Source: a virus
Taxonomy: Duplodnaviria; Caudoviricetes
Length of the DNA stretch: 64,000 bases
Reading direction: 5' to 3' (one strand)
Virus record (IMG/VR): IMGVR_UViG_3300035517_000383
Location: 88,103 to 152,102 of that record
This document shows positions 2,011 through 61,017 of the stretch, one piece after another. The notes beneath the pieces are model-generated. The model was not told the DNA's origin and did not search any database. It saw nothing but the letters and a program-made list of their open reading frames with translations. Position numbers and translations under genes: made by a program. Numbering within the stretch: position 1 is the stretch's first letter; every line of letters starts with the position of its first letter.

Positions 2011-2928
2011 ATGGCTTCAATAGGAATAGTAGATTTAGACCTTTGGTCTAATATTAAATCATTTCCCAATTTAGAATTAATGAAAGTTTATAATTATTAT
2101 TATAATAAAAACAATATAGTTAGAATGGTGCGGCCAACTGACCCATTAACAACTTTTACTCATATTTACTTTTTTAAAGAAAATCCTAATACATCAATTT
2201 CAAAAAAAATTAATATGAGAATGGATAATAAAACTCTATATGGATATGGTTTCTATAAGAAATTTTTTCCTTTAAAAAATGAAATAAGCGAGGTGCCGCC
2301 GAGGTATCTCCCTTATGATTCTTTTGTGGAACGATTAGCTAATACAAAATCTTATGATACAATGAAACAGAGTTCCTATATAAGAGTGGAAAATAAGGAT
2401 TTTACAGACTATAAACCTGATAGAACAAATATTTATATTGCGGATTATGATTTTATTCATTTACAAGAATCTTTAGATTTTCTTTAGGAATATAAAAAGC
2501 ATAATTTTAAATTCACTCATGGGTTAAAAATTGATAACGAAATCCTTTATAATCAATTTATTAGATATAGTAATCTATTTGATAGAAGATTATATATTAC
2601 TTTTAATTACTCTAAGGACTTTTTATTAGAAAATTATTATGAGAATATAGTGCTAAACATTAACAAGCCCCTAAATGAAATAATACAAATTATTTTATTC
2701 TTAAAAAGTAAAGAAAATAGTAAGGCTATTCTAGAAAAAGTAAGTAATATTAATCAATTATAGGATTATGTCATTAAATGGGGTTATGCCGCGGCAAGAG
2801 AATCTTACTATGAATATTATAAGAAAAACAGGAACGCAATAAATCTTGCTGAAAAAAGTGACAGTAATATACGTCTACTTTTAAAGACAAAACCTAAAAA
2901 CTATAAATCCTCAAATATTGACTTTTAA
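2011..2928 (+). CDS. hypothetical protein, 305 aa reading through 2 TAG; N-terminus resembles the IGLxDxD..FPNLxLMK radical-SAM-associated family
   Basis: GGAGG RBS. Frame stays open past TAG at 2485 and 2761 to TAA 2926-2928. No Cys seen in the translation. Confidence 0.65.
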
Positions 2929-2946
2929 GATAAATTATGGTATAAT
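2918..2946 (+). promoter_or_regulatory. sigmaA/sigma70-type promoter with extended -10
   Basis: TTGACT-17 nt-TATAAT with TG at -15/-14, upstream of GAGGAGG RBS. Confidence 0.85.
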
Positions 2947-2977
2947 TATAATACAAAATAAAGAGGAGGGGAAGATA

Positions 2978-3181
2978 ATGGAAAAAGATGTTTTAACTCA
3001 AATTTCTGAAAGATATGAAACATTGTGTTTTTCTTTAGAAAGAAAACACTCAGAATTAGAGCAACTGAAAGTTGATATTTTTACACATAACCCTAAATTT
3101 CAAAAATTAATTACAGAAATTACGCAATTAGAAAATGAGAAAAATGATTTGGAGGATTTAATGAATGGAAGAAAAGATTAA
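2978..3181 (+). CDS. small coiled-coil hypothetical protein (67 aa)
   Basis: RBS GAGGAGGG then ATG 2978; heptad-like L/E/K pattern. Confidence 0.7.
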   Translation: MEKDVLTQISERYETLCFSLERKHSELEQLKVDIFTHNPKFQKLITEITQLENEKNDLEDLMNGRKD

Positions 3182-3914
3182 TCAACAAGACATAATATCA
3201 ATTTATAATGAAGATGGAACACTAAAAACTAAAGAAGAGTTTCTTAATCTTGTTGGACAAACCTATGATGTAATGCTAGAGGAAGAAAGTAAAAATATAG
3301 ATATTTTTGAAGAACTTACTAATTCTGAAAATCATATAGATGTAGAACAAACTCTTGAAACTTTTGATTTTATTGAACGTTCAATTTTTATTCAGGCAGA
3401 AATTACTCCAGACCATGCAAATCAAGTTTTTGAATTAATTAAATTTTGGAATAAAATTGATTCAGTCAATCAAACCCCAGTTGAAGAAAGAATTCCAATA
3501 AAAATTTATATTAATACACCAGGTGGCGACCTTAATGCAGTATTTAGTATAATTAGTTCTATTAAAATTTCTCAAACACCAGTTCATACAATTACAATTG
3601 GTACTGGATATAGCGGTGGATTCTTTATTGGAATTTGCGGTCATAAAAGATTTGCTTATCCTTATAGTTCGTTCCTTTTTCATGAAGGATGCTCAGCAAA
3701 CGAAGGTGACGCACATAAGTTTATTCAGAATGCAGAGTTCTATAAAACTCAATTATCTATTTTAAAAAAGATTACAATTGATAATACAAAGATTAAAGAA
3801 ACAAAATATGACAAACATCGCAAAGATGACTGGTATTTTGATGCTGAGGAAGCTTTAAAATATGGAGTCATTGATGAAATTATTACAAATTTTGATAAAC
3901 AAGGAGAGATATAA
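3165..3914 (+). CDS. clpP: ClpP-like serine protease
   Basis: IYINTPGG, catalytic Ser (GYSGG), His (FLFHEG), Asp (KDDWYFDAEEALKYGVIDEII). Confidence 0.85.
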   Translation: MEEKINQQDIISIYNEDGTLKTKEEFLNLVGQTYDVMLEEESKNIDIFEELTNSENHIDVEQTLETFDFIERSIFIQAEITPDHANQVFELIKFWNKIDSVNQTPVEERIPIKIYINTPGGDLNAVFSIISSIKISQTPVHTITIGTGYSGGFFIGICGHKRFAYPYSSFLFHEGCSANEGDAHKFIQNAEFYKTQLSILKKITIDNTKIKETKYDKHRKDDWYFDAEEALKYGVIDEIITNFDKQGEI

Positions 3915-3916
3915 GA

Positions 3917-4713: not shown

Positions 4714-5439
4714 ATGGCAAACAAAATTAAATTTGAAGATGTAAAATAGGATATAGAGAAAAATGGTTGGCTATTAAAGTCAACCGAATATCTTAATTTA
4801 AAAACAGATTTATTGGTTGAATGTCCAGAAGGTCATGAATGTCATGTATCCTATGAGAAGTGGCGGCGAAAGAACTATGAGTGTCCAACTTGTAAAAACA
4901 ATCCTTATGCCCATAGTGATAATATTGTAGTAAAGAAAACTGGTTTTAGAATTCTTGCTTTAGATTAGGCATCAATTACAAGTGGTTGGGCAATATTTGA
5001 TGATGGAAAATTAATTAAATTTGGTAAATGGACCTCAGATGGAAATAAAAGTACAGAAAGAATTGCAAAGACTAAATACTGGGTAGCCTCTATGATTGAT
5101 AAATGGAGGCCAGACCAAGTAGTACTTGAAGACATATAGCTTCAAAAGTTTGATAGTGGACAAGAAGGTGTTACTACTTTTAAGAAACTTGCTCATTTAC
5201 AGGGGGTTTTAAAAAATTATTTCTATGAATTGGGCTTACCTTATAAAGTCGTGCCGCCGTCAACATGGAGAGCTTTTAGTGAGATTAAAGGAAAAACTCG
5301 TTCAGATAAAAAGAAAAACGCTCAAATTAAAGTTAAGCGTTTTTATGATATAAGTGTAGACAATGATACAGCAGATGCAATTCTAATAGGTCACTGGGCA
5401 GTGCATGATAATGAAAGCAATAAAATAATTGAATTTTAA
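4714..5439 (+). CDS. ruvC: RuvC-like Holliday junction resolvase with N-terminal Zn-ribbon, reading through 3 TAG
   Basis: ATG 4714. CPEGH..CPTC, then ILALD*ASITSGWAIF, VVLEDI*LQ, PSTWR, DTADAILIG. TAG at 4747, 4966, 5137. Confidence 0.85.
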
Positions 5440-7431: not shown

Positions 7432-7671
7432 TTATTTAAACATAGACATAAATGAGTTAAATTCCTGACCAAAATTTAACCCCTGTTGTCCAAAATAGTT
7501 TTCTGCCATTTTATTAAGACTTGAAATATCACCATTCTAAGCTAACGAAACCATTTCATTAATAGTAGGGTCATTTATATTATTTTCTTTTATAATAGAC
7601 CTTACTAGCTGTTCTGGGTTCATACCTCCTTTTAATAATCCTATCAATTGCATTGGATTAACATTCATCAT
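7432..7671 (-). CDS. small NPMQ-type hypothetical protein (cassette gene 2), 79 aa, 1 TAG
   Basis: MMNVNPMQLIGLLKGGMNPEQLV...LA*NGD; overlaps stop of upstream gene. Confidence 0.75.
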
Positions 7672-8102
7672 AATGGAAATTCACCACCATTAGGTTTAAT
7701 ATTTTTTTGAAGCTCATTAATTTGAGACTCAATTTTTACAAAACGATTATTAAATTCTTCTAATTGAGAAGAAGTAAGATTACTTATTTCTTCATTTACT
7801 TGATTACTGTTCTCTTTGGGTATATTATTGTAAGGTTCAATTTTATATGCCCAGAATAGAGGATTACCATTCTACATAGATTTAATATACATCAATCCTT
7901 CATTCAAACATAAAGCAACAGATATTCCAGCACCAGTTGGTACATTAGCAACTTCTAAGGTTGAATTTATGTTATATACATTACCTTGTGGCTGAGGAAA
8001 TAAAGGTTGTACGTTTTGCTGCTAAGCTTGAAAATTATAATTTTGCTATTGCGGCACAGCGTTCTAGATTAGCTGTTGATTCGCGTTATAATTATAAGCC
8101 AT
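7668..8102 (-). CDS. Gln/Asn-rich hypothetical protein (cassette gene 1), 144 aa
   Basis: GAGGTG RBS. MAYNYNANQQLI*NAVPQ*QNYNFQA*QQNVQP...YIKSM*NG, with TAGs embedded in poly-Gln context. Confidence 0.78.
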
Positions 8103-8635: not shown

Positions 8636-10624
8636 TTATTTTGTAATATTTTCGTTAAATGAATAATTATCACCAGTCCATCTATAGAACAAATATTTAC
8701 CACTTCCATTTTCTGGAGTTCCAGTATCTATATCTTTTGAGACATTATAATTAACACAAAAAGCAATTGGAAGTTTATTATAAAAGTTAGAATCTGAGTT
8801 ATTGTATCTTGGCATTTTTCCGCAGGCATCTAGAATAGCCTTTTGATAATTTTTACTAAGTTCGCTAAAATCATCATCTAAAAATAACTAAGGATATTTG
8901 ATGTTTTTATAAATTAGCTAAGCCTATTTTAATGACTAGTCATTACTTGCTGTCCACTATTTCCAAGTTCCTGAATTGTAAAATTGGTCATCATTAAGAT
9001 TATCGAACCACTGTGTCATATTGTCTCCTTTCCAGCGGCTTTCTGAAATCATTTTTGTTCTAATTAATTTTGAATAACTTATCTAAGCAGAAGAGGTAAA
9101 ACCAGAATACTCAGTATCAGTACAAATAGCTGTAGCATATCTTAAACCAATATTATTGTTTAATTCATTTATACTATTAGGATAATTACCCATCCAACTA
9201 TCACTTATTATTCCATTGTAATAAAATTGAATAATATTACTAGGAACACTATCTAAACTACTATCATTCTAATAAGAGGATAAGTCCTAACCTCCACCTA
9301 CAGACAAGGATGATTCAAGATTACAAGTAAATAGTTCAGGTGTTCCACTAAAAATTCCATAACAATAATTTAAAGAATTGTTCTCAATGACTGGTAGGCC
9401 GCTAGAAGAACTACTTGATGACGCAATTGTTTTATTTTTTAAACTATCCCAATTTGGTATTGAGTAGTTTCCATTTTGAACTAATTTAATTGTTGAAGAG
9501 GGGTCACTACTATTTGTTCTAAAATGAATATGTACATGAACAAAATAACCATCTACCCCTTCCGTATTACCACTCGCGCCAATACCCCCAATGATAGACC
9601 CTTTAGAAATAGAATCTCCTTCTTTCCATGTTTTTGAAAGAGAATATGTGGTATCTTCTGGATTGATTAAATGAGCATATACAATATAAAAATTATCATC
9701 AATTAATTCGTTATATTTTGTATTAGTACATTTAACAATAACATGATTACCTAATCCGCCATTTTGTCCTTTTTCTTCACTGGTTTTTGCGATTGATTCA
9801 CAACCATACTTCGCAGCAGTTATAATTCCATCAGTCATTGAATACACGGGAGAGCCAACGGCATCGTTTCCATTTGAATATGAAACATCTACTGCGCCGC
9901 CATGACTAACATAAGAAGTAACTTTAGCTGTGTTTCCATTTAAACCAAGTGGGTGACAAAAATAATTAAATAATTGTTGCATAAAATCTAAATTAGAATA
10001 ATCTATATCCACTTTTCCGTTAATACCAGTAATTGTCCCATCTTCTGATGCCTAGTGAATATCATAATTGTAACCTTGATAGCTTGACGTGTCTTCTATT
10101 GAACTGGTCCAGTTTGCTACCCAAAGTGAACAGCTATCTGCTATTGTTTTAAATTTGTCTGATTGATACCATTTATCTATATGAGATTGAGATGAATAAA
10201 GGCCAATAGAATAAGAGGTATTGCTGAACTATTCTTTGAAACTATTAAAGAGTTCTGCTATTGTATCTCCTTCAGAATTTATATGATTACTTTCTTCCAT
10301 ATCATAATAAATTGGTAATTCCAAAGTGACTTCATTCTCTCCCAATTCTGAGGCTAAGTCGTTTAAAGCCAATAAGCACTATTGTCCTTCTTTTACAGAC
10401 TCTTCTGTGCTTGTACTATAAGAATACCAATATATTCCAATTGGAATCCCCAAGTTTCTAAACCCCTTAAAATTAGTAATATATTTTTTATCTTTTGAAT
10501 TCTCATAGCCATATCCACAACGAATTATTACAAAATTGACATCATTTTTTGAAATTAAATTAAAATCAATACTTCCTTGATGTTCCGAAACATCAATTCC
10601 CATATATTTTAACTATTTTGACAT
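8636..10624 (-). CDS. peptidoglycan hydrolase: GH25 muramidase + M23 peptidase + C-terminal domain (662 aa, about 11 TAG)
   Basis: GIDVSEHQG, IIRCGYG, PIYYDMEE, LWVANW, DIH*ASEDG (GH25 WQY position); then HGGAVD, YAHL, HVHIH (M23). Single frame from ATG 10624 to TAA 8636. Confidence 0.85.
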
Positions 10625-10635: not shown

Positions 10636-13600
10636 TTATTCTATGATATCCTATAATCCATAACTCTAAGAGGAAGACATAGATGAACTAGAATCTAAAT
10701 CTTCTGTACCAACGTAATCTGTATAAGAATTTGAAAGATTAAAGGTATAAGAATTATTCTCGTTAATAGTTGCAATTTCATTAGACCATTGTAAAGCATA
10801 TCCTTTTTCACTACCACTAGGGGTATAACTATAAGAACCTTTTTCTAAAAGCTCTTGAATTAATAAAAATAAACGATAATAATTATCAGAATTCTCATCC
10901 TAAGAAATATGCTATAAACATTGTTTAAAATTCTCATAGCCGTTAATTTGTCCTTTTTTTGGTACATAATTTTTTACTCCAGAATAGGTGGATATAGACC
11001 CAGTTAAGGAAGATATAGAGTGTCTGTGCCGCAAGAGTGCACCCTAGCTATTTTCTAGAAAGAAGTTCAAAGAGTTTCCACTCATATCTTTTAAATTATC
11101 AAAATCAATTTGTAATCCATCTTTAGATAATCTCATGCTAGGATTATTAATTACGATGTTATTAGATAATTCCGTCAAAGCCGTAGAAGTTCCATCACTA
11201 TTTTGAATAGAACCACCTATATAAAGTACACCATCTTTTAATATACTTAATATATTTTCAATACCATTCGATGAAGAAGTGTTGTCTTGGTGGCCGCAAC
11301 AAAAGATTCTTTCATCCGCCTATCCATTTTCAGCACTTAGAGAAGTATTGTTAATATATAAAGCTACTGTCTAATCTTCTTGACTTTGATTAATATTACT
11401 GTTCTATGTCTTGTTTTTAAAATATTGATAGCTGGATAAATTAGAAACATAATAAAGATTCTCGGTTACTTTTTCTGCCTATCCAATGTCTTTTATTTTA
11501 TAGTAAGTAATTCTTGATAAACTCAAATTTTTTGTAATGGAATAAGTATTACTACTATTTTGTCCATTTAAAATATAGCAGCTTGAAACTGTAGAACTTC
11601 TAGTAAATATACTCTGTTCTTTTTCGTTTATATAGCATTTATATGTTTTTGTAAGACTATTATTCTTATCAAAAGTAAAAGTATCATAAGAAAAATAATT
11701 TGAATATAAATCGCTATTCAAAAAGCCCGTAGCAGGATTTTCATTAGTCTCCCAATTCTTATAGGTATAATAATCACTATTTGTTCCATCTGATATTTCA
11801 AAGGTAGTATCAAAAGGAGTTTCATTCTATAAAATATAAGAAATCATCATCAAATAAGGTGTTGAATCCGATTCAAAATCATTAAGCAGATAAACAAGTT
11901 TTTTTGTTGCTCCCTCTTCTGTGCTATATTCTATAGTATCAGTTATATCAGTATAAGTAGAATAGTTTGATTGTTTTATATCAAGAGCGTTAGAATATGA
12001 AAAATATATATTAGTAGATGTAATATTATCTAATATTTTGTTCGTAACAAATATTTCCCCTGTAAGAGATATTTTTGCAGTTTCTTCACTACTTTCTGCT
12101 TGCTACATTTCCAATAATTTCTATCCTTTTAATTTAAGAATTTCATCATCAGTTAAACCTTTAGCTTCATCTTCTGTTAGCTCTACATCGTTAATTGTTA
12201 AAGATGAGTTCGTTGCAGTTGTTGTGCTAAAAATCTTTTTACCTTCACTATTATAGAGATAAAAACCTATATTTCCTGTCGTATCATTTTCTGTAGACAT
12301 TACACCGTTATCTCCTGAGAAGTCATAGCCAGCTCTTAATCTAATAATACCATTTTCTACTAATGATAGGCCTTGTTTATTGAATTTAGCATAATCACTA
12401 AAACTAGATTCATCTTCTGTTGGCTCTCTGTATGCAGTTATACCACTCTTATCCCATAAGAAATATAAGTAATCATTATCAACAATTCTTATTTTTCCTG
12501 CGTCTAAAGTTCCAACTTTAATATAGTCCGCATTTATTCCGCTTGGCCCTACGCCTACATTCCAAGACTGACCACCATTATTAGAAAAGAAAAGTCCTTG
12601 TCCATTTAGTTTGTACTGATTATTATGATTATTAATATCACTGCCGCTCTGTCCAGCTGAATCAATATTAATATTACTTTCTTCTGTATTAATTAATGTT
12701 AAATCATTAGTATCTAAAGTTCCCTATAAACTATCTTGTTGAATGTTTTGAGTTGAAGTAAAATTAGAAGCTCTTTTATACAAATTTTCATTAAAACTTA
12801 AGGACTATACCGTAGCTGTAACCTATTGAAACAAATCCTCAAATTGAGTCGTATAATTTTGCACATTTATAGAATTATTTGTCGGAGTGTCTAAATCTTC
12901 TGTGATTTCAGAAATGATTACTTTTAATTTATTAGGTAATCCTGTTTTTTGATTGATACCAAACATACCTATATCTTCAATATAAGTTGTATCAGCAATT
13001 TCAAATTTATAATCTTCATATTCAGGTAAATCATATAAATCAACTACTGTAATTGAATAGCTAACCTTTGGAATTGCACCTTCTGCGGCGACCTCTTTTG
13101 CTCCAAAATAATAAGCATTATCAGTTAAATAATTACTATCAGTCCAAGTTCCTTCCTTTAGATAGGGTTCGTAATGTTGATAAAAAGCCAAGGATATTCT
13201 ATTTATATCTTTTAAATATTTAGAACGCTGTTTTTTCCAAGCTTGAATTTGTAGATATTCAGCGTTATATTGTCCTAATAATCCTAAAGTATATTTATGG
13301 GTATCTACCCAGTTTTCTTTTATTTGTGTAAAATTAGTATTATTATATTCCAAAAAGTTATCAATTGGAATCTCAGTTGAAATTACTAATTCTTTTAAGA
13401 TAGATGGGTCTAAACAAGAATTGTCACTGGAATAAAAAGTAGACTGAACTAAACCATTCAAAATATTTTTCTGTTCTTTCCATTTTGTAACATAATTTTT
13501 ATAAGTGTCATTCTAAGTATAACTAGTATATTGAGTAGCAATACCTTTATATCTATCCATCTGTTTTTTGATTTTGTTTAGTTCCTTTTGTGCGGTATCA

Positions 13601-46768: not shown

Positions 46769-47040
46769 GGTAAATCAATCCTGTCAAAAAGATTCATACA
46801 TTCAAAAATTGTTTTACGATAATATTTAAAAGATAAATATTTGCAGGCCGCAAGTTTACTATAAAGAGTATAATATTCAATTGTTTTATTATTATCTTGA
46901 TAACCAATTAGTTCAACTAAAATAGTATCTAAAAACTTTTCCCATTCACCATCTTTTTCTCTTTCTCTTAGAAGTCCATAAAGCTTTTTCTTCATCTTAT
47001 CTCTATAAGCTTCTTGTACTAGCTCATTATTATTTACCAT
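46765..47040 (-). CDS. hypothetical protein
   Basis: Open ORF coupled to both neighbours. Confidence 0.7.
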   Translation of the reverse strand: MVNNNELVQEAYRDKMKKKLYGLLREREKDGEWEKFLDTILVELIGYQDNNKTIEYYTLYSKLAACKYLSFKYYRKTIFECMNLFDRIDLP

Positions 47041-48133: not shown

Positions 48134-49231
48134 TTAGTCACCAATGCCGGGATACTTAGTGTTCTCATAATCCAACTCTGTATTTACATATACACACCAG
48201 TTGTAGTTTGTAAGAACTGCAACACCAACCTTACCATAAACTTCAATTTCGAAGCTTCTGTCTCTGTGCTGCCAATCATCAATTCTCATGTCACCCTCAA
48301 ATACAATCTTAACAGGTTTTGTCTGTCCATTAGGGAAGATATAAGCAAATGCAGGGTTCATAACTGTTGTCTCATTTGTCTCATCAGTGAATGACTGAGG
48401 AATCTGAACGATAGGATTGCCACGGAAAGTCTTGATATAACCAGTATTAGCAATATCCTCAATATCTCTAGGAGAATAAACAGGAGTTGCATAACCATAA
48501 GCCTGACCAGCAGTTGTTGAATTTGGTGCATAAATAGGAAGACCAATTGCATCAGGACCCATTGCAGCAACGAATTCAGGTGTAGCAAAAATTGTTACGC
48601 CGCCGTTACCATAAGAACCTGCTACTGCGCAAAGCTGAGCCATAGCGTCTGCATCAAATCCAGCGCCAATATGCTTATTCTTAGCGGGTCTATCATCTGC
48701 ATTTACAGAAGCAATAAGAGCCTTCTGAACTTCACCAAGAATAGCTTCCTGATAACCCTCAATAAGGATTTCTGTAGACTCTGCAATATCTTCATCGCCG
48801 CTAATATATCTCTCGAAGTCAATATATGCTGTGCCGCCGATAGCCTTAGCACCAACTTCAAAGGTATTCTTATCAAGACGGAAACTCTCATAAACACCAG
48901 AAAGTGCAACCTCAGTAATAAACTGCTTAGCACGTCTACGTCCAGTATTAATTACAAACTGAGCCTTTTGTCCATTAGGAACTGTCTTAATTTCTGCAAA
49001 AGAACCCATAAAATCTTCAACCTTACGAGGTACGATTTCTGTATAAGCTTCTTGCATAATCTCAAAAAGGTCGTATTTATTTCTACGATAGCTGTCATAG
49101 TCATGAGCAATCTTATGAATCTCTTCTCTTAAAGCGCTCTTAACATCAGCACTTGAAAATTTAGAAGGGTCTGGATTTGTACCATAAAAAGAACAAAGAA
49201 CCAAATCCTTTACTGTATTCTTATCTACCAT
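48134..49231 (-). CDS. major capsid protein (probable)
   Basis: 365 aa, after scaffold and decoration genes, highly-expressed-type codon bias, followed by terminator. No TAG. Confidence 0.75.
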   Translation of the reverse strand: MVDKNTVKDLVLCSFYGTNPDPSKFSSADVKSALREEIHKIAHDYDSYRRNKYDLFEIMQEAYTEIVPRKVEDFMGSFAEIKTVPNGQKAQFVINTGRRRAKQFITEVALSGVYESFRLDKNTFEVGAKAIGGTAYIDFERYISGDEDIAESTEILIEGYQEAILGEVQKALIASVNADDRPAKNKHIGAGFDADAMAQLCAVAGSYGNGGVTIFATPEFVAAMGPDAIGLPIYAPNSTTAGQAYGYATPVYSPRDIEDIANTGYIKTFRGNPIVQIPQSFTDETNETTVMNPAFAYIFPNGQTKPVKIVFEGDMRIDDWQHRDRSFEIEVYGKVGVAVLTNYNWCVYVNTELDYENTKYPGIGD

Positions 49232-49257: not shown

Positions 49258-49917
49258 TTATTCAGCAGGCTTGTCAATAAACATAATTTTAAATGACAAG
49301 GTTGTATCTGCGTTATGATATGCTTCTGTTACGATTGCATATACGTTACCAATTGCGTCTGCGGGTTTAGCACCAATTACAAGCTTACCCTTTGAATCCT
49401 TAGTTACAACAGCATAAATAGGTTCTGCAGGCTTAGTTGCGAGAGCCTCTTTTACCTGATTGTACATCTGTACAGATTCAGGAGTAGAATCTCCAGCATC
49501 TACAGTAAATACTGTATCATCCCATGCTACTGCATTTGTACAAATTCTCATACCAGATTCAACAAAACCAATTCTAGGGAGAAATTCGCCTGCAATCATG
49601 CAGAAATTTCTGCGGCCGGGTGTAAACTGATTATAGATTTTCTCAGTTGAATAATTAACACCCATTTTATATCCAAGTTTACTCATATCCTCATTAGGAA
49701 TAGTTGCAATCTTGTTCTGCTTGTCAATCATTAAAAATGCACCATTTTCTGCATAGATTTTTTCGTCAGCAGTTTCTGTTGCTGTCATTGGATAGTGACT
49801 TGCAAACTTATCGGGGTCTAACTTGCACTGAGATTCTGACATACCAGCACGAGTAAACCATACCTGACTAGGCTCAATTTGGCCATAGCCCTTACAATCA
49901 AAAAACTTAATTGCCAT
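49258..49917 (-). CDS. putative head decoration/structural protein
   Basis: Between scaffold and capsid genes; YGQIEP..ENG motif. No TAG. Confidence 0.55.
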   Translation of the reverse strand: MAIKFFDCKGYGQIEPSQVWFTRAGMSESQCKLDPDKFASHYPMTATETADEKIYAENGAFLMIDKQNKIATIPNEDMSKLGYKMGVNYSTEKIYNQFTPGRRNFCMIAGEFLPRIGFVESGMRICTNAVAWDDTVFTVDAGDSTPESVQMYNQVKEALATKPAEPIYAVVTKDSKGKLVIGAKPADAIGNVYAIVTEAYHNADTTLSFKIMFIDKPAE

Positions 49918-51410
49918 TACTTATTACCTCCGTTTTTGTATTTATTTAATAATCTAACAAGACCAGATTCACCTTTCTCGATGTCTGTGTCTCCGCCTTT
50001 ATAGTAAATGTTGGGTTCTGACTTACTAAAAATAGAAGGGTCAGATTCAACAGCAGCGGTACAAACTTCTTTCTTGAATTCCTCAACGGAGAAATTCTCA
50101 ATGTTATTCTTAAACTCAGAAATAGTAGTTTCTGTTAGATGTGATTCATATTTAGAAAGAATAGCTTCTTTCTTTTCTGTTTCAACAGTTTTCTTGAAAG
50201 ATAATAAAGATTCTTTCTCATTAGTTAAGTCTGAAATTTCTGTCTCCATTCTAATTTTTTCAGTTTCAAATTCACTAACCTTTGTCTCAAATTCAGTTGT
50301 CTTTTCAACAATTTGATTTTCAAGATTAGTCTTAACTGTTTCAAACTCTGCACTTGCAGTTTCAAGTTCAGTCACTTTAGTTTCGAGTTCAGTTACTTTA
50401 GTCTCAAATTCTGTCTTTTCAGATTCAAGAGATTCTACTTTAGCAGTAGCATCTGTATAAGCGGTCTGTGCGGCCTCAAATGAGCCACCAACAGCTTTCA
50501 TAGCTTCAAGAGCTGTATATTCTGTAGCAGTTACATCTACAATTTGAACATCAACCATATCACCAAGCACAACAGAATTTGATGTGTCGTCTTTAGTATA
50601 ATAAACTCTTGCATAGCTTCTTTTTTCAATGCTTTTACAAAGTGCGTAATCATCATATACATCACATATCATGTATTCTACGTTCCAATTTCCTTCCTCA
50701 TTGAAATTTGGATTTAAAGCATCAAATAAAGCATCTGCTTTTTCACTATCGGAAAGTCTAAACATACTCTTATCCATGCGTACTTTCTCCTCCTTTTTCT
50801 TACAAAAATTTTTTATATAATCAGCCATTTCTTTGACATCTTTGTATAAACTAAAGAAAGCAGAACCCTCAAAACAAGGTTCTGTCTCATCTCCAAGAAC
50901 TTGAAGACCCACTAGTCCACCAGTTATAAAATGATAATATGGTTGATTATCTTGTTCACTAATTCGCCACTCGCCTACAAGAGTCTTTCTATAAATCTCC
51001 ATAGATTGCGACTTATCAGGAATAATCTTTGCTTCGGGGTATAAACCAGTAAATAAATAGACATCACAACAAGCATAATCTCTTGTTTCGCCGTCATCAT
51101 CTTGATGCTCTTCCCAAGCAAAATTAGGATTTTCTGGTACAATACCATAAATTCGTCCGTCCGTATTATCTTCACCATGGTCCTCGTAATCAAGGGTATC
51201 ATTATCAAAGATACCCTTAATTGGAGTATATGGCAATGAGGTAATAAGCTAATTTGCAAAATCCTCTGATATAAAAGTGCGGTTTCTATTCATACCTTTA
51301 TAAAAAATTCGGACACGACATTTAGATAAAGTATCAGTAATTTTTTCTGTAGCTCCATACAAAGTCACGTCAAGAGTGGTCGGAATTTTAGCAAAGTTTT
51401 CATTAGCCAT
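49917..51410 (-). CDS. prohead protease-scaffold fusion (497 aa, 1 TAG)
   Basis: NRNRTFIS..LPYTPIKG..SQSMEI..LG..EPCFEGS, then acidic coiled coil with ETKVTEL repeats. Confidence 0.72.
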
Positions 51411-52969
51411 TATTCCTTCACCTCAGTTTTATTATTATCCTTTTCATCTTCTTCACTTTCATCGTTTGTATCTTCTTCATCTTGTTTTTGATTATCATTA
51501 CTATTATCTTTATCTGTATCTTCTTCATTATTTTTAGTATCACTAATTGGTTCACCTTGTGATTTACCAGATTGAGTATAAGAAGATTGAAGAGGTTTAA
51601 GAACTTCATCAAGATTAAGCAAATCATTTTCAAGAGATTTAAGGGCCGCAAGATTTGTTTGGTCAATACCTGTGGATAAAACAGGAGTTAAGAAACAATA
51701 TCCAAATGACGCAAGCTCTCTTGCTCTTGAAGTATAGTCTGCACTATTATAATAACTAATAGGCAAAATTAATAGCTTAAACTTAGTTTTTTTATTCTCA
51801 AATTTATAATTTAAAAGAGCAGTAAAGAAATGAGCAAATTTTTGTCCCAGAATCATAGTCATAGCTAAGTCGTTGTTAAGAGAATAATTAATACCTGCTT
51901 CTGTTGTTGCAGAAAATAATTCTTTTGATACACCAGCAGACTAATAAATTAAATCTTGAACATCTTCAACTTCGGTTTTTTCATCGTCATCACTACTCAT
52001 ATCTAACAATGACACGTTTGTATAAGTAGTTAGAACATCAATATCTGGATTACTAGAAAGCATTTCTAATGCACCTTCGTGCATTTCTTCTGCTTCATCT
52101 GGTTCAAAAACCAATTTCATACCATCGTGCGGCACAGTCTAAACCAGAATTCTTTTTAATGCCTAAAGATTACGTTCTTTATCAATCTCCTTATAATCAT
52201 CTAAATCATCGAGTAAAGGAATTAAATCAAGAAAGAACGGCCGCTCTTCAAAGTAATTAAAATAAATTCCCATTTCAGCGGGAAGAAAAACCCAAGCAGG
52301 TCCATCATGGTATTTATATTTATTATATCCTTTCTACACTATCTTTGGATAAGTATTAAGAATTTCTTTTCTTAATTGTTCATCTCTAATAGTATCAAAG
52401 AATTTCATATTAAACTCAACTATATCAATATCTTGTGCATTTTTAAATCTACTGCGGCAATAGTCAAAAGGTAAATCTTGAATTACAACATTGTCTCCAT
52501 TATCATGAAGCAAACCATAATACCCACCTTTAACCAAAATATCCTTAGCAAATAAAGCGCATTTTCTATCAATTTGAAAAGTTGTACAAAAATCTGATGC
52601 ATCATAATAAGCAGATGAAACTTTTTTATCTGTAATTGTAGTTTTCTAGTTTTTAACATATGGCACTAAAATCCAAGAATAAGTTAAAAAAGTTGCATAG
52701 TGAAGAATAATACGTTTATAAACCCCATTAGTTGCAAAAAAGAATTCAGAGAGTGCCGCTTGTTCTACGGGGTCGCCGCGCTGCACGATATTGTTAATTT
52801 CCTCTTTACTATAAACTAATCTACGTTCTCTAACTGATTTTTTATCGGATTTTTGATACGCGGCCTTAGAAGTAGCAATCATATCTTTAAAAGCTTTTTT
52901 AAAATCAGTAATACGTTCTTTTTGTAAATCCTTTAATTGTCCAGTAGTAATATTTATATTCTCATCCAT
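51410..52969 (-). CDS. portal protein (519 aa, about 5 TAG)
   Basis: Four track fragments in one frame directly after terminase; PLQSSYTQSG then acidic tail. Confidence 0.72.
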
Positions 52970-52976: not shown

Positions 52977-55900
52977 TCACCTCCCTTTTTTAAAGAAAGT
53001 TAATTTGCGGCCTAAGCCGCGATTGCGACAACGGGACATTTCTTCTTCTTCAATTTTGGCAACTCTATAAGTTCCCATTTCCAAAGCAGAGAATTTATCT
53101 TTGGTCATTCTTTTATTAATTTGTTCTACAGCAATGAGATTATTTGCACCCGCAGGTTTAACCTTTAAGTTCATCATTTCATTGATTAAAATTGTTGTTA
53201 ATTCGTGCGGCATTAGACGTGCAATTCTCTATTCTGGAGACATCTTCTGTCCAACCTTAGTACTTATTAATTTTACTTGTCCTTCTTGTTCTGAAATTAA
53301 GAAATTAAGTTTACCATTATCTATTTTAGCATATAGAATAGAGTGCATCTCACTGTTAATTTGTGAATTAGCTTTTATACCATAGAGAATTTTAATAGCA
53401 TTCTTTGGCTGGATTTCTTCGTATTCATCACGATTGAAAAATCCATAGGCTGGATAAATTTTTCCTGTTTTTACATCATAGGTTTCTTTAATCATACAAT
53501 CAGCAAATCCAATACCTAATCCATTAATATCTATCACAACTTCTCTGGGATTAAATTTCTCAATAAGTTCTTTTAATGCTAACGCCTGTCTATCAAATAA
53601 CTTTTCATCTTCTGTTTTACCTAGTACAAATAAGTTAACCAAATTACAACGATATTCAGCATCTGGGAATACTTTTAAAACCGTAGCAACAGTCTAGCAC
53701 CCCCTTCTAGCTATATCCACACTTATAATGTAGAAACTATTTACATCAGCTCTAACAGATTCCTTCGTTTCGGGATTCATTAAACGTCTATGAAGTTTAA
53801 TTCTCTCGTAATTAAACCAAGCATCGCTTGAACTGCCGACAAACTGACTTAAGTACTCTTTAGCGAAAGATTCTTCACTAAATGTCTGAGAGGTTTTTAT
53901 TTCATTTAAAAAGTTTTTAGGTAATAGACCTACCTACATTGGAACTCTATAATCACAACCAAAAACGAAGCACTTGTTCGGATTGATAATTGAAAGTTCC
54001 ATCATTTCAATTGCTTTGTCATAACAAAATGTATTTTTATCTGACGCTGAACTCATCCATAACTGAATCTGCTGTGGTTCAGAATCGTTTTTTAATCCAT
54101 TTGCCATCTTTCTATCAACATTCATAAGCGGCAAAACGACATTATTAAGTTTATCTGCATCATGGTCCATTAGTACCCTCGGTTTCCCGATATTTATTAA
54201 GGGGATTAGACTATACCATACATTATAAAATGTTCACTATTATAATTAAATATTTAATGGTAAAAAATTGATTTTTTTTCTTTTATATTTTAAATCTAAT
54301 TTATAATACATAGATGGAAAATTATGCCAAATTATAGGAGCAACTATTTCTAAAAATTTTATTGTGTTTTTTGTATTACACCATAAACGAGGATTGTTTT
54401 TATCATAAGTTAAATGAAAATCAAGTCCCCATTTAGATAATAAATACGATTGTAACATTTTTACCTCTTCAAGTGTGAAAGATTGTACGTTTAAATGTAT
54501 TTCTCTTGACTTGTATGTATTGGGGTGATTGGGGTCTTTGTGTAGTCCCAAACATCCATCATCCATATACATAATTGCTAAAGTAATTTCATCAAAACGA
54601 TTTAATATAGTTTTTGTTAATTGCTTTTTCCCATTCATGTAGATATCTTTATATAAATTTTTTAATCTTTCATTATTATAATACGCATATCTATAAAGAT
54701 ATCCTTTATTATCAGTTGATGTTCTTAAAGAAGTTGGAGTTAAATATTTATTAATAAAAGAAACTTTTTCGTCTACATAGTTTAATTGTTTTCCACCATG
54801 ACGAATATATAAATATTTTTCTCCATTCATAGAGCCATCAAACAAAATCATTCCAATTAATGCACTATTTAATTTATGTGCTGTATCAATTTTTACCATT
54901 ATAAAATCCTCCTGTACTAAAAGTAATACGAGTTTTCAAATATTTATTAGTCGTTGAACGTCTCTCCAAATTGGAGATTTCGCTGCGTTTGATTGCCCAA
55001 TCTTTAGTGATTTTACTATACCGACTCCGTTACTAGTCGCCGCATTATTATTGCTAATAATGTTTAGTTACTAAAGCTCTAAGGACTTCCCCGCAATTTA
55101 AGTGATTTTAGACCCGCAAATCATGATGCTCGTCTTACTTTACGGGTCTCGTCTATTAATCCCAAATGTTATCATATAGACTTTTTATCCTATATTTCTT
55201 ATAGTTTCCTATAAGGTCGGCATATCTTTTCAGTCTTTACTGTTGCGGCCTCTTGGAGAGATTATATCTTTTCACTCTCTATGCTCTGCCCCTGACTTAA
55301 TTTTATTAAGCCTTCGGTTCGGATTCCCATATCAATTAGAAGATATTGACTTAGGCTTTCCGCTTAATTCCGCAATTTTTAAACGGCCGATTAATAGATT
55401 TTTCTCGTTTTCCGTTAATTTTTTGTATATTTCTTTTTCTTTTTTTCTTGACCTACCACTAAACCAATCTTTTACTGTTGTTGGCTTAATTCCCAAATAT
55501 TTAGCTACACAAGTGTATCCATATCCGAGTTCCTGTGCGCAAAAAGCAAAATTATAATCATCTTGAGTTAAAGAATAAGCTTTTATACATCCACCCTGTT
55601 TTAATTGACGTTTATCGTAGACTTTCAACAACTCTGTATTATAAAAATTTTCTGCAATTTGTTTTATTTCATCTTTGTTCATCTTATCAAATTTTTCTAA
55701 TTGTTCTATATAACCTAATCTTCTTTTAATTCGACTGGCAGTTCCTTTTGACCAACCAAAAATTTCTTCGCAACTTTTTCCATAGCCACTCCCATAAACA
55801 TCTAATATACATAAGAAAGTAATAATATCTTTTTCTTTTGCTTTTTGATGTAAAGGAGGTTTTCCACCGCCTTCTGCAATATTGAAGCCATCTTCAATAG

Positions 55901-58416
55901 AATTAAATTTTTTGATATACTCACATTCAAGTTTATCTAATTCTTCAAGACTATTTATATTAAATTCCCAAACTCTAAAATGGAACTCTTGCTCTCCATA
56001 TTTATTCCAAGCATTTTGTAATTTAATGTTATCATGAATATTTTGATTTAATTTTCTAATGTGAGTATTTTTTCTACGCTTATAGTCAACTGTTTGTCCT
56101 ATGTAACTTTTTCCGTTTTGTAAACATTGTATCTAATATATATATCCAATCATTTATATCAACCTCCTTGGTTGTCTTCTGCATATAAGTGATTTTTTAT
56201 ATACATATCTTTAAAATTTTCAGAGGTGGAAGAAGTAGAAGTATTAACTTCTATATAATTCTAAACCGTTCCTTCTTCCTCCACGTTGAGAGTTCAAAGC
56301 AGATACAACGTCAAATATAGAACCATTTCGGAAACTTAATCTCGTTTATGTTATGTAAGTTTGTTATACTTACTCTTAATATTTCTATTAAGACCAGACT
56401 ATATCTTCTTCCTTTCGGAAGGATTCTATTTCGAGACTTTTGCCTCTACTCCCTTGTAGGATAGTCGTTGAACTTTCCGCTTAGCGGCTTGGCTGCTGAT
56501 TGTCCATTTAATAAGTTTTAGGATTTAGCCATGACTCATCTATTTTATTTTTTCTACTTTCGTAACTATTTTCTATATCAAGGAAAAATATAGAATGTAG
56601 TTAAAATAGCTTTAGGATGTTCCAGCAATTAAGAATCTTTTATTTTATCATATCATTTCTGATACGTATGTCGTATTAATCTCAACATAATCGTTTCCGA
56701 AGTTTCCGTCTCCAATAATTTCTCTTTTTAGTAGAGGAAATAAATTCCAAATTTCCAGAATTTTTTCCCTAGCAATTTTGGCTGATTCTAAAAATGTTTA
56801 ATTAAGGTCGCTAGCCTTAATCCATATGGCTCATAGTTTCCTATGAGAACAGACTATATCACTATCTTTATAAGATACCTATTGTTAACTTTGCTTTAAA
56901 GTATTTAGTCGTTGAGCCACAAAAATGATAAAATATTTTCAATATCATTGTATTGAATATATTTTATTTCTAATAATGAGTACTTATTTTCTTCACAAAA
57001 TTTCCTTTTTATTTTGTCGTTGTCTTGTTGTTTTTTAAATTTTTCTTCTCCACCAAAATGTTTAATTGGCATAAAATGTTGTTCTCCTTGATATTCAATA
57101 AGTAAATTAAATTGCGGTATATAGAAATCAAAAGATAATAATCCCAATTCTGAAAAATGTTTTTGGGTTTCAAACTCTATATTGTTTTCAGTAAGAATTT
57201 TATTTATTTTAATTTCGCCTTTGGAATTAAATCTTTTACATTTCGGACAAGGAGCTTTTAACAATATATTATGTGGCTTATTGTAAAAGATAAAACCACA
57301 GTCATTGTGTTTGAATAAAGTTTTCTTATTTGTTCCCAAATATTCTCCGACTAGAGTGTATTCATCTTTATATAAATTATAAAGTTGTTGTTCAAAAACT
57401 TCTTTTGTTTTAAATGCTGAGAATGTTTCGCAAAGTGGACATTTTTGTGATTTTAAAAATACTTGTGGTTTTCTTTTAAAAACGCTACCGCATTTTAAAC
57501 ATTTTAATTCTAAGTCATCAGTAATTTTAGTATAACTATTTAATAATTCAATATTTTTATTATTTTTTAATACATAATTAACTTTATTCCCAAGTTCAAT
57601 AGTATCTTTTCTTGGAACGCATTTTTTACAAATCTTTTCTTTTGTAGGATTTAAAAAATTATATGCTCTTTTTAACGTATAAACTTCTCCACATTTATTG
57701 CATTTAATTATTCCTAAATTTAAAGAGCCAGTATATTCTACTACCGTTAAATTTTCATTCGGATATTTCTCTTTTATTCTATTACAAAAATATTCAAATT
57801 TATCTTTTACATAACTCATTATTATTCCTCCTTTTTTTATGGTCGCTGATTATCCATTATGACAAACTTAGGCTTTTACCTTATTTGATTCCAACACTTG
57901 TTTCTGACTTTCATCTCTATTCTATCTTATCGAGGAAAATAAGATAATAGCAGTTGGACTTTAGGACGTTCCAGCTTTAAAATAGGTTATTCAAGCCGTC
58001 TCACGACGACAGGGCGCAATCTTTCGCGCTTTTCCGGGTGCAACAATAAAATATTTTCCATTAGGCTTAAACATACATATTAAGTATAAAGCCAAAATTG
58101 AAATAAAAGACTTACTAAACGCCCTAGGTGCAATAACAAAAAGTCTTGGATACCGCAAAGCAAGTCTTATAAACAATCTCTGATAAAAAAACAATTGAAA
58201 GTGAGAATTTAGCGGTTTAATAAAATCCAAGAACAAATCTGGATATTGAATCCAGAAATTAAAATAAGTCTCATAAAGTTTTCTGTTTTTCTCGATGCGT
58301 CGAGATGTCATTACCGCACCCTTTTCCATCTCAACACCATTTCTATAAATCTTTTTAGCGGTATTAGTAACCACATAGTGAACAGTATTTAGCATTACTT
58401 CTGGCATTTCTATCAT
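52977..58416 (-). CDS. terL: terminase large subunit, 594 aa, 5 exons (58416-58026, 56787-56684, 56342-56265, 55162-55142, 54167-52977)
   Basis: LFFYQR, APRAFSKSF (Walker A), APGKAQ/SAKIA, DYV/RLSFRNG, RGGRRNG/GLIDETR/DHD (Walker B), VDIAR, IDINGLG, KDKFSA. Exon sum 1785 nt. Confidence 0.88.
54168..55141 (-). mobile_element. group I intron TerL-I4 with LAGLIDADG gene
   Basis: AAUUGCGGGG, CAACGACUA and GUAUAGUC flank the ORF; U|...G boundaries. Confidence 0.82.
54246..54899 (-). CDS. LAGLIDADG homing endonuclease
   Basis: ALIGMILFDG and LAIMYMDDG motifs. Confidence 0.85.
   Translation of the reverse strand: MVKIDTAHKLNSALIGMILFDGSMNGEKYLYIRHGGKQLNYVDEKVSFINKYLTPTSLRTSTDNKGYLYRYAYYNNERLKNLYKDIYMNGKKQLTKTILNRFDEITLAIMYMDDGCLGLHKDPNHPNTYKSREIHLNVQSFTLEEVKMLQSYLLSKWGLDFHLTYDKNNPRLWCNTKNTIKFLEIVAPIIWHNFPSMYYKLDLKYKRKKINFLPLNI
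55163..56264 (-). mobile_element. group I intron TerL-I3 with GIY-YIG gene in the P1 loop
   Basis: Exon AACGGU pairs with IGS GCCGUU near 55383-55388; P7 GCAUA/UAUGC. Confidence 0.8.
55332..56153 (-). CDS. GIY-YIG homing endonuclease (273 aa, 1 TAG)
   Basis: MIGYIY*IQCLQNGKSYIGQT..R..H..LQNAWNKYG..FN...GG. Confidence 0.82.
56343..56683 (-). mobile_element. group I intron TerL-I2, ORF-less (341 nt)
   Basis: P1 AUGUU/GACAU, AAUUGCUGGAA, CAACGACUA, AAGAUAUAGUC. Confidence 0.85.
56788..58025 (-). mobile_element. group I intron TerL-I1 with endonuclease gene
   Basis: GCUGGAA, AAUCAGCG, CAACGACUA, GAUAUAGUC; splicing restores KAQSAK. Confidence 0.8.
56905..57819 (-). CDS. Zn-ribbon repeat + Vsr/DUF559-like homing endonuclease (no TAG)
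   Basis: CxxC repeats, SKGE..FDFYIP..LIEYQGEQHF..QQDND; paralog of 29861-30952. Confidence 0.85.
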   Translation of the reverse strand: MSYVKDKFEYFCNRIKEKYPNENLTVVEYTGSLNLGIIKCNKCGEVYTLKRAYNFLNPTKEKICKKCVPRKDTIELGNKVNYVLKNNKNIELLNSYTKITDDLELKCLKCGSVFKRKPQVFLKSQKCPLCETFSAFKTKEVFEQQLYNLYKDEYTLVGEYLGTNKKTLFKHNDCGFIFYNKPHNILLKAPCPKCKRFNSKGEIKINKILTENNIEFETQKHFSELGLLSFDFYIPQFNLLIEYQGEQHFMPIKHFGGEEKFKKQQDNDKIKRKFCEENKYSLLEIKYIQYNDIENILSFLWLND

Positions 58417-58427
58417 ACTACTTCACC

Positions 58428-59378
58428 TTACATCTCAATTTTAAACTCTTCTTGGTCGGCAAGAGTATCCTTATCGGACTGGTCAGCTATATAAGCGCGG
58501 AGTTCCTGTTCATCAAACTCTTCACCTTCGAGTTGTGCCGCAACCTTAAGATTGTTAATACGTTGCTCAATTTCTTCCGCAACACCAGTTTCATTTACAT
58601 ATAATCTTTGATTCCAAAGTTGAATATTACGTTGAACACAGTCAACTTCATCCCTTTGTGCGCCCTAATAATATTTAGCAACCCAACCAGTTTTCTCTAA
58701 ATATGCTCCAGCCTCAGCAAAACTACTGAATTCTTCTGCATCCTTAACGTTTTTTGGAGTTAGGTTAGAAAGCTTAGCGAGGTCATCATAAGACTTTAAA
58801 TCCTTAGAAAAATCTTGACCACCACGAATCTTCTCCTCAATAATTAAAGAAATCTTACAAAGTTTAAGTGCTTGGTCTTCGTTGAGTGCGCCAACAACAT
58901 TCTAAGAATTTAGAAGTCCCTAGTGTAAGTTCTCCAAATATTCAAGGTCTTGTTGGTCATATTGTACACCCCATTTCTTCTGCATCTTCTTGAAGTTCGC
59001 TTCTCTTAGTTCTGCGATACCATCACTAACTCTATTCTCTTCCTAAAGTTTTAAATATGCATTATTATAATCCTCCCATTCTAAAGTATTATATGGAGTT
59101 TCTCTAAACATGGCCGCATAGACACCAATCGCATCTTTTCCATGTCCATCATAAATCTTCTACCACTCAGCTGGCACGAATGGGATATCCGCCCACTAAC
59201 AAATTTTATCAGCTATATCCCAAGTTAAACCATCATGTTTTGTAGCTTCTTGTTCAATTTGTGTTGCTAAGCATTGACGACAAATTGGAAGAACTCCACC
59301 ATGAATTGGAGAATTAGAAGCAATATAATTAGCCGTTGTTTTTTCTTGCTAACAACGCTAACAAATTCTTTTAGCCAT
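58428..59378 (-). CDS. Zn-finger protein upstream of terL, candidate terminase small subunit (316 aa, about 8 TAG)
   Basis: MAKRIC*RC*QEK..PICRQC..C*WADIPF..KKWG..Y; absent from the track; synteny. Confidence 0.6.
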
Positions 59379-59544
59379 TTATTTATTTCACCTCTTTTTT
59401 TAATTTTGTTGCGCCGCGCCATTTATTTTAATTCTCTAAAATCGACTCGGTGGCACAAGGTAATTTTTAAATAAAGAAGAATAAAATCTTCTACAAAATA
59501 GACAATTCTATTTTTTAAGAACCTAAAACTATTTTAAAAAGTTT

Positions 59545-59805
59545 TTAACGCCCCTCCCCAGAGGTCTATTCTTCTTTTTCTATCCCTTTAATTATATCCT
59601 TGTTCGCCGCCGCAACGTCTTTTGCAAGTTTTAAAAGTTTTTTTCTCTTAAACCTCGACTCCTCTTGAAAACCCATCAAAATCTCAGTAACATAATCCTC
59701 AAAATTATCTTGTTCCTCAATTCCAAGTATATTTCCAAAAGCAAGTATATCAACAAAGTTAAGCTTAGAAAAATATTCTAAAAGTTGTTTTAGTTGTTTT
59801 TCCAT
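59545..59805 (-). CDS. hypothetical protein (86 aa if TAG 59566 is read through)
   Basis: AGGAGGAG RBS. Confidence 0.65.
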
Positions 59806-59820
59806 TATATCTTCTCCTCC

Positions 59821-61017
59821 TTACTTAAATCTTTGTCTTTCTTCCTTATCACATCTCTTACACTTATTTGTAAGCCCATCAGATGATTTTGTCTTTTTAA
59901 CAAAATTTCTAGAATCTCTCAAAAGCTCTCGGCCGCACTTCGTACAAACTTTCCATCCCTTATCATAATCTTTCATCAACCATTCATCATAATTAAGAAT
60001 TGCGGCCTCATTAATAAGTCCTATAGACTTATTAAAAATTGTACTAATATAGTTCTCTGAGTGATAAATCCCTAACTCCCTTTTTAGGTGTTTTGTAATT
60101 TCTCTATTGGGAACTCTTAATTTCTTATCTCTAATAATTAAAAGCTATTGTTTACTTAATTCTGCCTTTTCAATATAAAAGTCTAAAGTCCAAATTAATC
60201 CGTGTAAAGGAGAATCTGGAATTTCCTTAATACTATCTACAATATCCCAATAATTCTAAATTAAACAGTAAATGTGTTCTTTTTCTCTAAAATCAAAGTA
60301 ATATTTTCCTGACTATTTTAATTGTTCTAATTGTTCTTCTGTAAATGCTGTTGCAGTGCGGCCACTGCTCTAACTTCTAGGATTTTTAAATTCCCAATCA
60401 TTTTCCTCTTTCATAACTCCTCTAGGTAACACTAAGTAATTCATCTAAGAATCAACAATACTACCGTGAAATTCTGCCTTGTTCTTTTGTCCAAGAATAG
60501 TCTAGAACTCACTATCCCATAAGTAGTATTGTTGGGTTCTTAGTTCAATTAAGGAATGCTTTAATTGGTAAAGTTCTTTTTGAGAAAGAATTGGAGTAGA
60601 TGAACGTTTCTCTTTTTTCCCTAAGTTCTCATCAATTATATCCTATAAATTCTAAATTTGTTCCCATAATTCTTTCATACCGGGTATGTCTTTTGCTTTT
60701 TCCTTATCAATTGTTGGCTTAACTTTCTTATAAATTGTCTAGTTTTTGGATAATTGTGCTTCATCAAAAGTAGGAGACTCTATCATTTCATCAAGACTTA
60801 TAAATTTTTCTTTATTATAAGAATTATACTTAGTTTTAATCTAAATTTCTCCTCTATCAACAACTGATGTGCCGTCCTCCTAATCTTTACCATATAATAT
60901 ATAATTTGAAACGGTTTCTAATTCAGATTTATTAAGGGTTTCTAAAGGGATTTTTCGAATTGCTTCTAACCTATCTTTAGAAGAATAGATATTAAAATCT
61001 AATATAAATTTTTGCAT
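59821..61017 (-). CDS. putative DNA-binding regulator with HTH-like segment and C-terminal Zn finger (398 aa, many TAG)
   Basis: AGGAG RBS; LETVSNYILYGKD..NREITKHL..HSENYISTI..CTKC..CKRC; absent from the track. Confidence 0.6.

Follow-up and report, generated by a model that had tools for sequence, protein, structure and literature searches.

Reassignment of the stop codon TAG to glutamine (Gln) is known in gut phages; peptides have proven it in crAss-like phages (PMC9523058), and it has been inferred for phAss-1 (PMC10607447), a distant relative of the phage described here. According to the model advanced for this recoding (genetic code 15), host release factor 1 (RF1) truncates late proteins until a phage suppressor accumulates (10.1101/2021.08.26.457843). 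Here we analyse the meaning of TAG in a 64,000-nucleotide stretch of viral DNA, hereafter the window, which corresponds to bases 88103-152102 of a single 152,102-bp virus contig (IMG/VR record IMGVR_UViG_3300035517_000383; genome C1). Positions given with the prefix C1 lie outside the window. We find that TAG is very probably a sense codon for glutamine in this phage, probably decoded by a phage-encoded tRNA(CUA) and used in a manner that would delay late proteins, with TAA and TGA as the working terminators.

The window is the late half of the 152-kb genome of an uncultured, siphovirus-like tailed phage and carries lysis, tail, head and packaging genes. The contig is an estimated 92% complete and has a G+C content of about 30%. 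In a comparison of portal proteins, the GenBank phages that come nearest are phage contigs from human faeces and phAss-1, with identities of about 30%; large siphoviruses of Enterococcus, Bacillus and Lactococcus come next. IMG/VR holds many closer relatives, with portal identities of 60-84% and genomes of 150-180 kb. A megablast search of 20 kb against GenBank phages returned matches of 50-65 nt only, and no close cultured relative.

Several traits are held in common with the crAss-like and Lak phages that use code 15: TAG aligns to Gln and is concentrated in structural and lysis genes, the phage tRNA(CUA) maps to a region with little TAG, TAA and TGA still terminate translation, and no aminoacyl-tRNA synthetase is of phage origin. 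Unlike those phages, the present one belongs to a separate, siphovirus-like lineage with a 152-kb genome and with tape-measure and distal tail (Dit) proteins. No release factor 2 (RF2) gene was found, in contrast to Lak phages, and the suppressor has C33 and a 6-bp extra arm capped by GAGA. phAss-1 and the proposed genus Phassvirus (PMC10607447; OQ749652) are likewise siphovirus-like gut phages of 130-150 kb with tRNA(CUA) genes, no aminoacyl-tRNA synthetase, and TAG in TerL (terminase large subunit), tape-measure, portal and tail genes; the phAss-1 portal is the second-best GenBank phage match. However, phAss-1 encodes 36 tRNAs, including three suppressors classed as Gln-type by tRNAscan-SE, as against a total of six or seven tRNAs, with a single atypical suppressor, in this genome. 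Members of Phassvirus share 80-86% nucleotide identity (PMC10607447). No long match to any of them emerged from the 20-kb megablast search, and with a portal that shares no more than about 30% identity with its phAss-1 counterpart, the phage falls outside the genus.

Reading frames across TAG

Under code 11, in which TAG is a stop, the genes of the window fall apart into same-frame pieces. The original observation that these pieces fuse into long open reading frames (ORFs) ending in TAA or TGA was correct, the longest such frame encoding 1994 amino acids. Across the genome, 278 in-frame TAGs occur in 149 ORFs, about 195 of them within ORFs of the window, and with TAG taken as sense each of the 149 frames has TAA or TGA as its terminator. 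Because TAG makes up only about 21% of the genome's stop trinucleotides, frames with 26-28 TAGs and not a single TAA or TGA are far beyond chance. Coding coverage also rises on going from code 11 to code 15: stop-to-stop ORFs of at least 150 amino acids cover 56% of the genome under code 11 and 79.5% with TAG as sense, and the genome-wide mean ORF length grows from 290 to 375 amino acids. Over most of the window, ORFs of this minimum length cover a fraction of 0.31-0.56 per bin under code 11 and of 0.72-1.0 with TAG as sense. Treating TGA as sense leaves coverage almost unchanged. The further claim that the fragments are separated only by TAG does not apply to every break: three group I introns and several homing-endonuclease genes also interrupt the genes for the tape-measure protein, the terminase and one tail paralogue, as described below.

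Homologue alignments and the meaning of TAG

It is from alignment only that glutamine is assigned as the probable meaning of the codon. We placed X at every in-frame TAG and compared the products by tblastn with 78 related IMG/VR loci and with four complete relatives that were fetched whole; a substitution table built from the same alignments gave a per-site log-likelihood for each residue. Had residues other than Gln filled the TAG columns, the glutamine reading would have failed here, and the alignments bore it out. Opposite TAG, the relatives most often carry Gln (721 cases) and then TAG itself (180), followed by Lys, Glu, Asp and Asn. The aligned Gln codons are CAA in 571 cases and CAG in 150, compared with 997 to 338 in general Gln usage; as the CAA/CAG ratio is that of normal Gln codons, the signal is not a mutational echo of TAG changing to CAG.

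Gln was the best-supported residue by 43.5 nats in the first set, that of the IMG/VR loci, and by 62-160 nats in each of the four complete relatives taken singly. Within the window alone, at 131 TAG sites with at least three aligned residues, it was ahead of Glu by 68, Ser by 78, Leu by 169 and Tyr by 180 nats. Conservation at TAG resembles that at ordinary glutamines: Gln is the majority residue at 44 of these 131 sites (34%) versus 38% for genuine Gln sites, and in the closest relative the proportions aligned to Gln are 43% and 46%, respectively. At 52 sites with at least ten aligned residues, seven columns are dominated to 90% or more (91-100%) by one residue, and that residue is Gln in all seven. 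Viewed from the other side, the TAGs that the relatives carry in frame most often face Gln or TAG in this phage.

A phage-encoded tRNA(CUA) and its charging

ARAGORN found no tRNA in the window, in line with the earlier reading of the sequence. A search of the rest of the genome, where a tRNA(CUA), a glutaminyl-tRNA synthetase (GlnRS) or a release factor had been thought possible, yielded the tRNA and neither of the others. The genome's only tRNA(CUA) lies 60 kb upstream of the window at C1 27510-27603, minus strand (locus L079:2510-2603), in a small minus-strand tRNA cluster at C1 25.6-28 kb within a TAG-poor module. A further ARAGORN call in this cluster, tRNA-Leu(CAA) at C1 25674-25750, was not confirmed by Rfam. 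The tRNA(CUA), by comparison, was found by both programs, at 47.7 bits against an Rfam threshold of 29. It has a U1-A72 pair, discriminator A, an encoded CCA end and the anticodon loop CC-CUA-AA, with C33 in place of U33. Its minimum-energy fold is a cloverleaf with a class-II-like extra arm of 6 bp, capped by the GNRA-type tetraloop GAGA. U33 is near-universal in tRNAs, and no normal tRNA-Gln has a class-II-like arm.

In the orthologue of the closest relative (L089:1632-1771) the arm is kept through three double compensatory changes, GGGAAA/UUUCCC versus GGAAGG/CCUUCC, and we therefore take the arm to be real. Its loop is 4-nt GAGA in both tRNAs, not a 7-nt anticodon-like loop, and contains neither CUG nor UUG. 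All five relatives examined carry a tRNA(CUA), although that of the fifth (G002) shows its CUA anticodon only once an insert of the kind described below is removed. The tRNA(CUA) genes of the other relatives are 74-81 nt long and lack such an extra arm; one has a typical Gln D arm. A near-identical sequence of about 60 nt precedes both the tRNA(CUA) and an insert-bearing tRNA-Gln (L079 ~2604-2680 and 2936-3000, minus strand), and may be a duplicated promoter or processing signal.

PF00472, PF03462 and PF00749 are absent from the 152-kb contig, which means that no release-factor gene and no catalytic domain of GlnRS or glutamyl-tRNA synthetase (GluRS) was found in it. Because the phage lacks a GlnRS or GluRS of its own, a host enzyme must charge the tRNA(CUA). 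This could be GlnRS, or a non-discriminating GluRS followed by the amidotransferase GatCAB, which reads U1-A72. Both the similarity of the tRNA to other phage tRNAs and its U1-A72 pair are consistent with charging by Gln, or by Glu with subsequent amidation.

A bolder proposal, which we put forward tentatively and consider unlikely, is that the decoder represents a new tRNA design: an amber suppressor accepting Gln on a class-II-like body, with the 6-bp GNRA-capped arm, C33 and U1-A72, and charged without a normal Gln anticodon, for example by non-discriminating GluRS plus GatCAB. Under this proposal the suppressor (in the lineage) or an ordinary tRNA-Gln (in this genome) would be held inactive by a tRNA-shaped insert, such that tRNA maturation and not mere transcription would time the code switch. 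Our literature search found no paper on long-arm Gln suppressors.

Distribution of TAG and a proposed timing of late expression

TAG accounts for 23-25% of Gln codons in the two late modules (about 24%), versus 6-9% in the early and replication modules. The first TAG of a late gene falls at a median position of residue 47. Early in infection, host RF1 would be expected to stop at TAG, such that late genes would yield short stubs only; later, the phage tRNA(CUA), loaded with Gln by host enzymes, would outcompete termination and allow late proteins to be completed. We infer both the timing of this switch and the route of charging. A delay of late genes through recoding is what the published model proposes, and the late-gene bias fits it.

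The bias is not uniform. Eight genes of the late block, with 3-19 Gln each, contain no TAG (26669-27550, 42164-44779, 47513-48049, 48134-49231, 49258-49917, 54246-54899, 56905-57819 and 57991-58416), and recoding is thus selective among late genes. They comprise a probable capsid gene (the probable major head protein at 48134-49231, matching phrog_4088), an 871-residue member of a tail/virion paralogue family, two other ORFs, three homing-endonuclease genes and a piece of the terminase gene. At the 24% TAG share of the block, the 871-residue gene, with 19 Gln, would be TAG-free by chance with a probability of only about 0.5%.

Alternative readings of TAG

A number of observations weigh against the explanation given above. 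Some 70 of the 278 TAG sites are without an aligned homologue, and a few TAGs lie 1-4 codons upstream of TAA or TGA and could be real terminators. No RF2 gene that would favour termination at TAA and TGA was found in the contig. C33 and the class-II-like arm leave the activity and the amino-acid identity of the tRNA(CUA) unproven. Its similarity to other phage tRNAs is 0.74 for Gln and 0.72 for Glu, a ranking that does not settle identity. Nor is U1-A72 exclusive to Gln, several other tRNAs in these AT-rich phage sets also starting with U-A; we consequently rejected this pair as proof of Gln identity.

The TAGs close to gene ends lead to the strongest alternative, namely that TAG has a dual meaning, terminating some early genes with a TAA or TGA nearby as back-up and being read as Gln once the suppressor has built up. 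Such a timed, partial reassignment would refine the explanation preferred here and is compatible with it. The topoisomerase II gene (C1 72243-74498, plus strand) ends S-TAG-E-TAA; relative G004 has a stop exactly at the TAG position, and in G003 a stop codon stands at this position as well, with three codons and then more stops after it. In two further early ORFs, a TAG or a TAG-TAG pair precedes the stop by 3-4 codons. In the last five codons of genes there are 7 TAGs against 4.4 expected, whereas CAA and CAG together are depleted (13 versus 22). A dual meaning would also fit the stage-switch model (10.1101/2021.08.26.457843). The excess of TAG at gene ends is small and not significant, however, several of the ORFs concerned are short, unconserved or doubtful, and the majority of early genes contain no TAG whatsoever and are closed by TAA or TGA. 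We regard a dual meaning as possible, though less likely than not.

Alternatively, TAG could be decoded while the phage's own tRNA(CUA) is disabled by C33 and its odd arm, with the suppressor supplied by the host, by a co-infecting phage or from a part of the genome off the contig. The contig's estimated completeness of 92% leaves room for the last of these, and many recoded phages have no detectable suppressor (10.1101/2021.08.26.457843; PMC10607447). Against a non-working tRNA stand its score well above the Rfam threshold, its encoded CCA and clean cloverleaf, the compensatory changes that keep the arm, and the occurrence of a tRNA(CUA) in every relative examined. We judge this explanation improbable.

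That TAG specifies another amino acid is far less probable still. Ser, Leu or Tyr would suit the long-armed, class-II-like shape of the tRNA, and Glu would suit its Glu-like D arm, of which a 21-nt stretch is common to the tRNA(UUC) of another phage contig. All four residues fall behind Gln in the window by the margins given above (the least for Glu, the greatest for Tyr), the same order recurs in four relatives, and no deeply aligned column is dominated by a residue other than Gln. The class-II identities Ser, Leu and Tyr, prompted by ARAGORN's long variable arm, were ruled out by this homologue profile. Lastly, the view that the TAGs are real stops in pseudogenes or assembly errors, with no translation through them, has only the code-11 ORF picture in its favour and can be dismissed almost outright, given frames interrupted by TAG and never by TAA or TGA, homology on both sides of the TAGs, TAG sites common to relatives from independent samples (the 180 TAG-to-TAG alignments) and the presence of a cognate tRNA(CUA).

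Recoded genes of the window

PHROG and Pfam matches place the end of a DNA polymerase III alpha gene and genes for a Clp protease, a dUTPase and a RuvC-like resolvase on the plus strand at the start of the window. They are followed by a minus-strand late block with a lysin, a 1994-residue tail protein, Dit, the tape-measure protein, a five-member virion paralogue family, head-tail proteins, a probable capsid gene, the portal, terminase pieces and a sigma-factor-like gene. The RuvC-like Holliday junction resolvase gene (4714-5439, plus strand; phrog_159 at 2.8e-20) has three in-frame TAGs, two of them at the sites singled out previously, ALD-X-AS (4966-4968) and EDI-X-LQ (5137-5139), where X is TAG; all four complete relatives align on either side of each TAG.

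The remaining recoded genes lie on the minus strand. A small Gln-rich protein (7668-8102) has four in-frame TAGs, at residues 13, 19, 27 and 77, and the first three fall inside its Gln-rich N-terminus, in agreement with the Gln tract reported earlier. A lysin of 662 residues with GH25 and M23-like domains (8636-10624; PF01183 at 3.3e-16, endolysin PHROGs) has 12, including the TAG proposed for the GH25 domain, found at the domain end (10052-10054) in the context IH-X-AS. Beyond it lie the 1994-residue tail-module gene (10636-16620; 26 TAGs), which has no PHROG or family match, and the gene for the 827-residue Dit protein (16624-19107; 13 TAGs; phrog_202 and phrog_33). The tape-measure protein is encoded by a large downstream exon of 1932 residues (19162-24960; 28 TAGs; phrog_4211) and an upstream exon of 573 residues (31105-32826; 13 TAGs; eight tape-measure PHROGs). 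One string attributed to it, NT-X-RYIAT with X as TAG, was not found. A late gene of 592 residues (32841-34619) adds 12 TAGs.

One tail/virion paralogue, with a phrog_2729 domain (37456-39708), offers an internal comparison that matches its first description: the TAG at 37705-37707 aligns to Gln in three paralogues, GKDQRL-X-FEIP facing GKDQRYQFTI, GEDERMQIKF and GEDERFQFVIP. Four head-tail joining genes (44792-45544, 45531-46031, 46037-46768 and 47034-47498, spanning 44792-47498) have 5, 3, 5 and 2 TAGs, respectively, and flank a small TAG-free ORF at 46765-47040. In relatives, the columns that hold their TAGs at 45137-9, 44873-5, 45645-7 and 47316-8 consist of Gln to 91-100%. The portal gene (51410-52969; phrog_2739 at 4.3e-61) has five, of which those at 52163-52165 (residue 269) and 52139-52141 (residue 277) face Gln in 75 of 76 and 76 of 76 relatives. 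Finally, a phrog_3314 gene (58428-59378) has 8 TAGs and the sigma-factor-like gene (59821-61017) has 11.

Introns and homing endonucleases

Rfam (RF00028) called three group I introns in the window, all on the minus strand. Two lie in the tape-measure gene region, at 27964-28265 and 28318-28627 (76.2 and 66.7 bits), and are flanked by homing endonuclease genes. The third, at 41934-42265 (78.7 bits), ends the 871-residue paralogue ORF (42164-44779) at its 3′ end. The alignment of this paralogue loses homology at its last residues, which represent read-through into the intron, and it is the intron, not TAG, that breaks the gene here. The tape-measure and terminase regions also contain homing endonucleases of the HNH, GIY-YIG and LAGLIDADG types; because of these and the group I introns, part of the gene fragmentation in the window is intron-based.

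The terminase large-subunit region (52977-58416, minus strand) appears to be split. It contains, in order, a short TerL-like piece (57991-58416), an HNH gene (56905-57819), a GIY-YIG gene (55332-56153), a LAGLIDADG gene (54246-54899) and an ORF of 397 residues (52977-54170). At about 54166-54224 and 55167-55232, many unrelated phages match the DNA over 50-65 nt, at 90-94%.

tRNA-shaped inserts and genes beside the tRNA cluster

A Gln-type tRNA at C1 27810-27935, minus strand (L079:2810-2935), carries a 50-nt insert (L079:2852-2901) between U35 and G36, with the shape of an acceptor/T-arm minihelix and an ACCA end. ARAGORN labelled this gene tRNA-Stop(UUA); we make no claim of an ochre (TAA) suppressor, as all seven related inserts end in NCCA and cutting by this rule gives the loop CUUUGAC and hence an ordinary tRNA-Gln(UUG). 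In the closest relative, the tRNA(CUA) orthologue has a 46-nt insert between nucleotides 32 and 33. Seven inserts, one from this genome and six from relatives or other phage contigs, have a common geometry: a 7-bp outer stem, a linker, a 5-bp hairpin with a 7-nt loop, an unbroken 3′ strand and NCCA. Pairing over the seven is 47/49 in the outer stem, whose sequences are unrelated, and 34/35 in the inner stem. When the stretch running from the first base of the stem to CCA is cut out, a canonical anticodon loop of 7 nt results in every case. The tRNA is then Gln(UUG) in this genome, Leu(UAA) for three of the others and a CUA suppressor for relatives G001 and G002; Gln(UUG) also occurs among the six other tRNAs. 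A scan for the insert-loop pattern gave mostly chance hits, and such tRNAs were found in only 2 of 120 loci.

These inserts are of the kind known as 'enigmatic' tRNA introns in Lak phages (PMC6784885; PMC13037316), being shaped like the top half of a tRNA ending in NCCA, both in the Gln-type tRNA of this genome and in the tRNA(CUA) of its closest relative. The reading of TAG does not need the insert here, the tRNA(CUA) of this genome having none. A weak match to a hepatitis delta virus (HDV)-like ribozyme lies directly 3′ of tRNA-Leu(UAA), at L079:841-911 (C1 25841-25911, minus strand), and is possibly of the theta type. Theta ribozymes are known beside the tRNAs of recoded gut phages (PMC10879173); the present match, however, scores below the gathering cut-off (31.6 bits against 44) and is not next to a suppressor tRNA.

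An Rnl1-like RNA ligase (PF09511), a kinase-like AAA_33 protein and an Rnl2-like RNA ligase (PF09414) are encoded next to the tRNA cluster (C1 16711-17835, 18800-19720 and 20564-21562, respectively, minus strand) in genes free of TAG. Together they make up a tRNA repair kit in the style of T4, and this could join tRNA halves as well. As a link between RNA ligase and inserts this proved not discriminating, since Rnl1-like and kinase-like genes occur in relatives both with and without inserts. Elsewhere in the genome, C1 12165-13601 (minus strand) encodes a BrxL-like Lon protease/ATPase (PF13337 at 1.4e-97, with BrxL_N). BrxL is a component of the bacterial BREX (bacteriophage exclusion) defence system, and its presence in a phage is unusual.

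Implications

The phage is a clear further example of the TAG-to-Gln recoding already known in gut phages, and it adds to them a large siphovirus-like lineage with many IMG/VR relatives of 150-180 kb. For annotation, code 15 is needed to recover its tail, lysin, portal and regulator proteins; gene callers set to code 11 would shatter about two thirds of the late genes. If any one feature makes experiments worthwhile, it may be the unusual suppressor tRNA, as a concrete substrate for asking how host enzymes load Gln onto a reader of stop codons in recoded phages generally.

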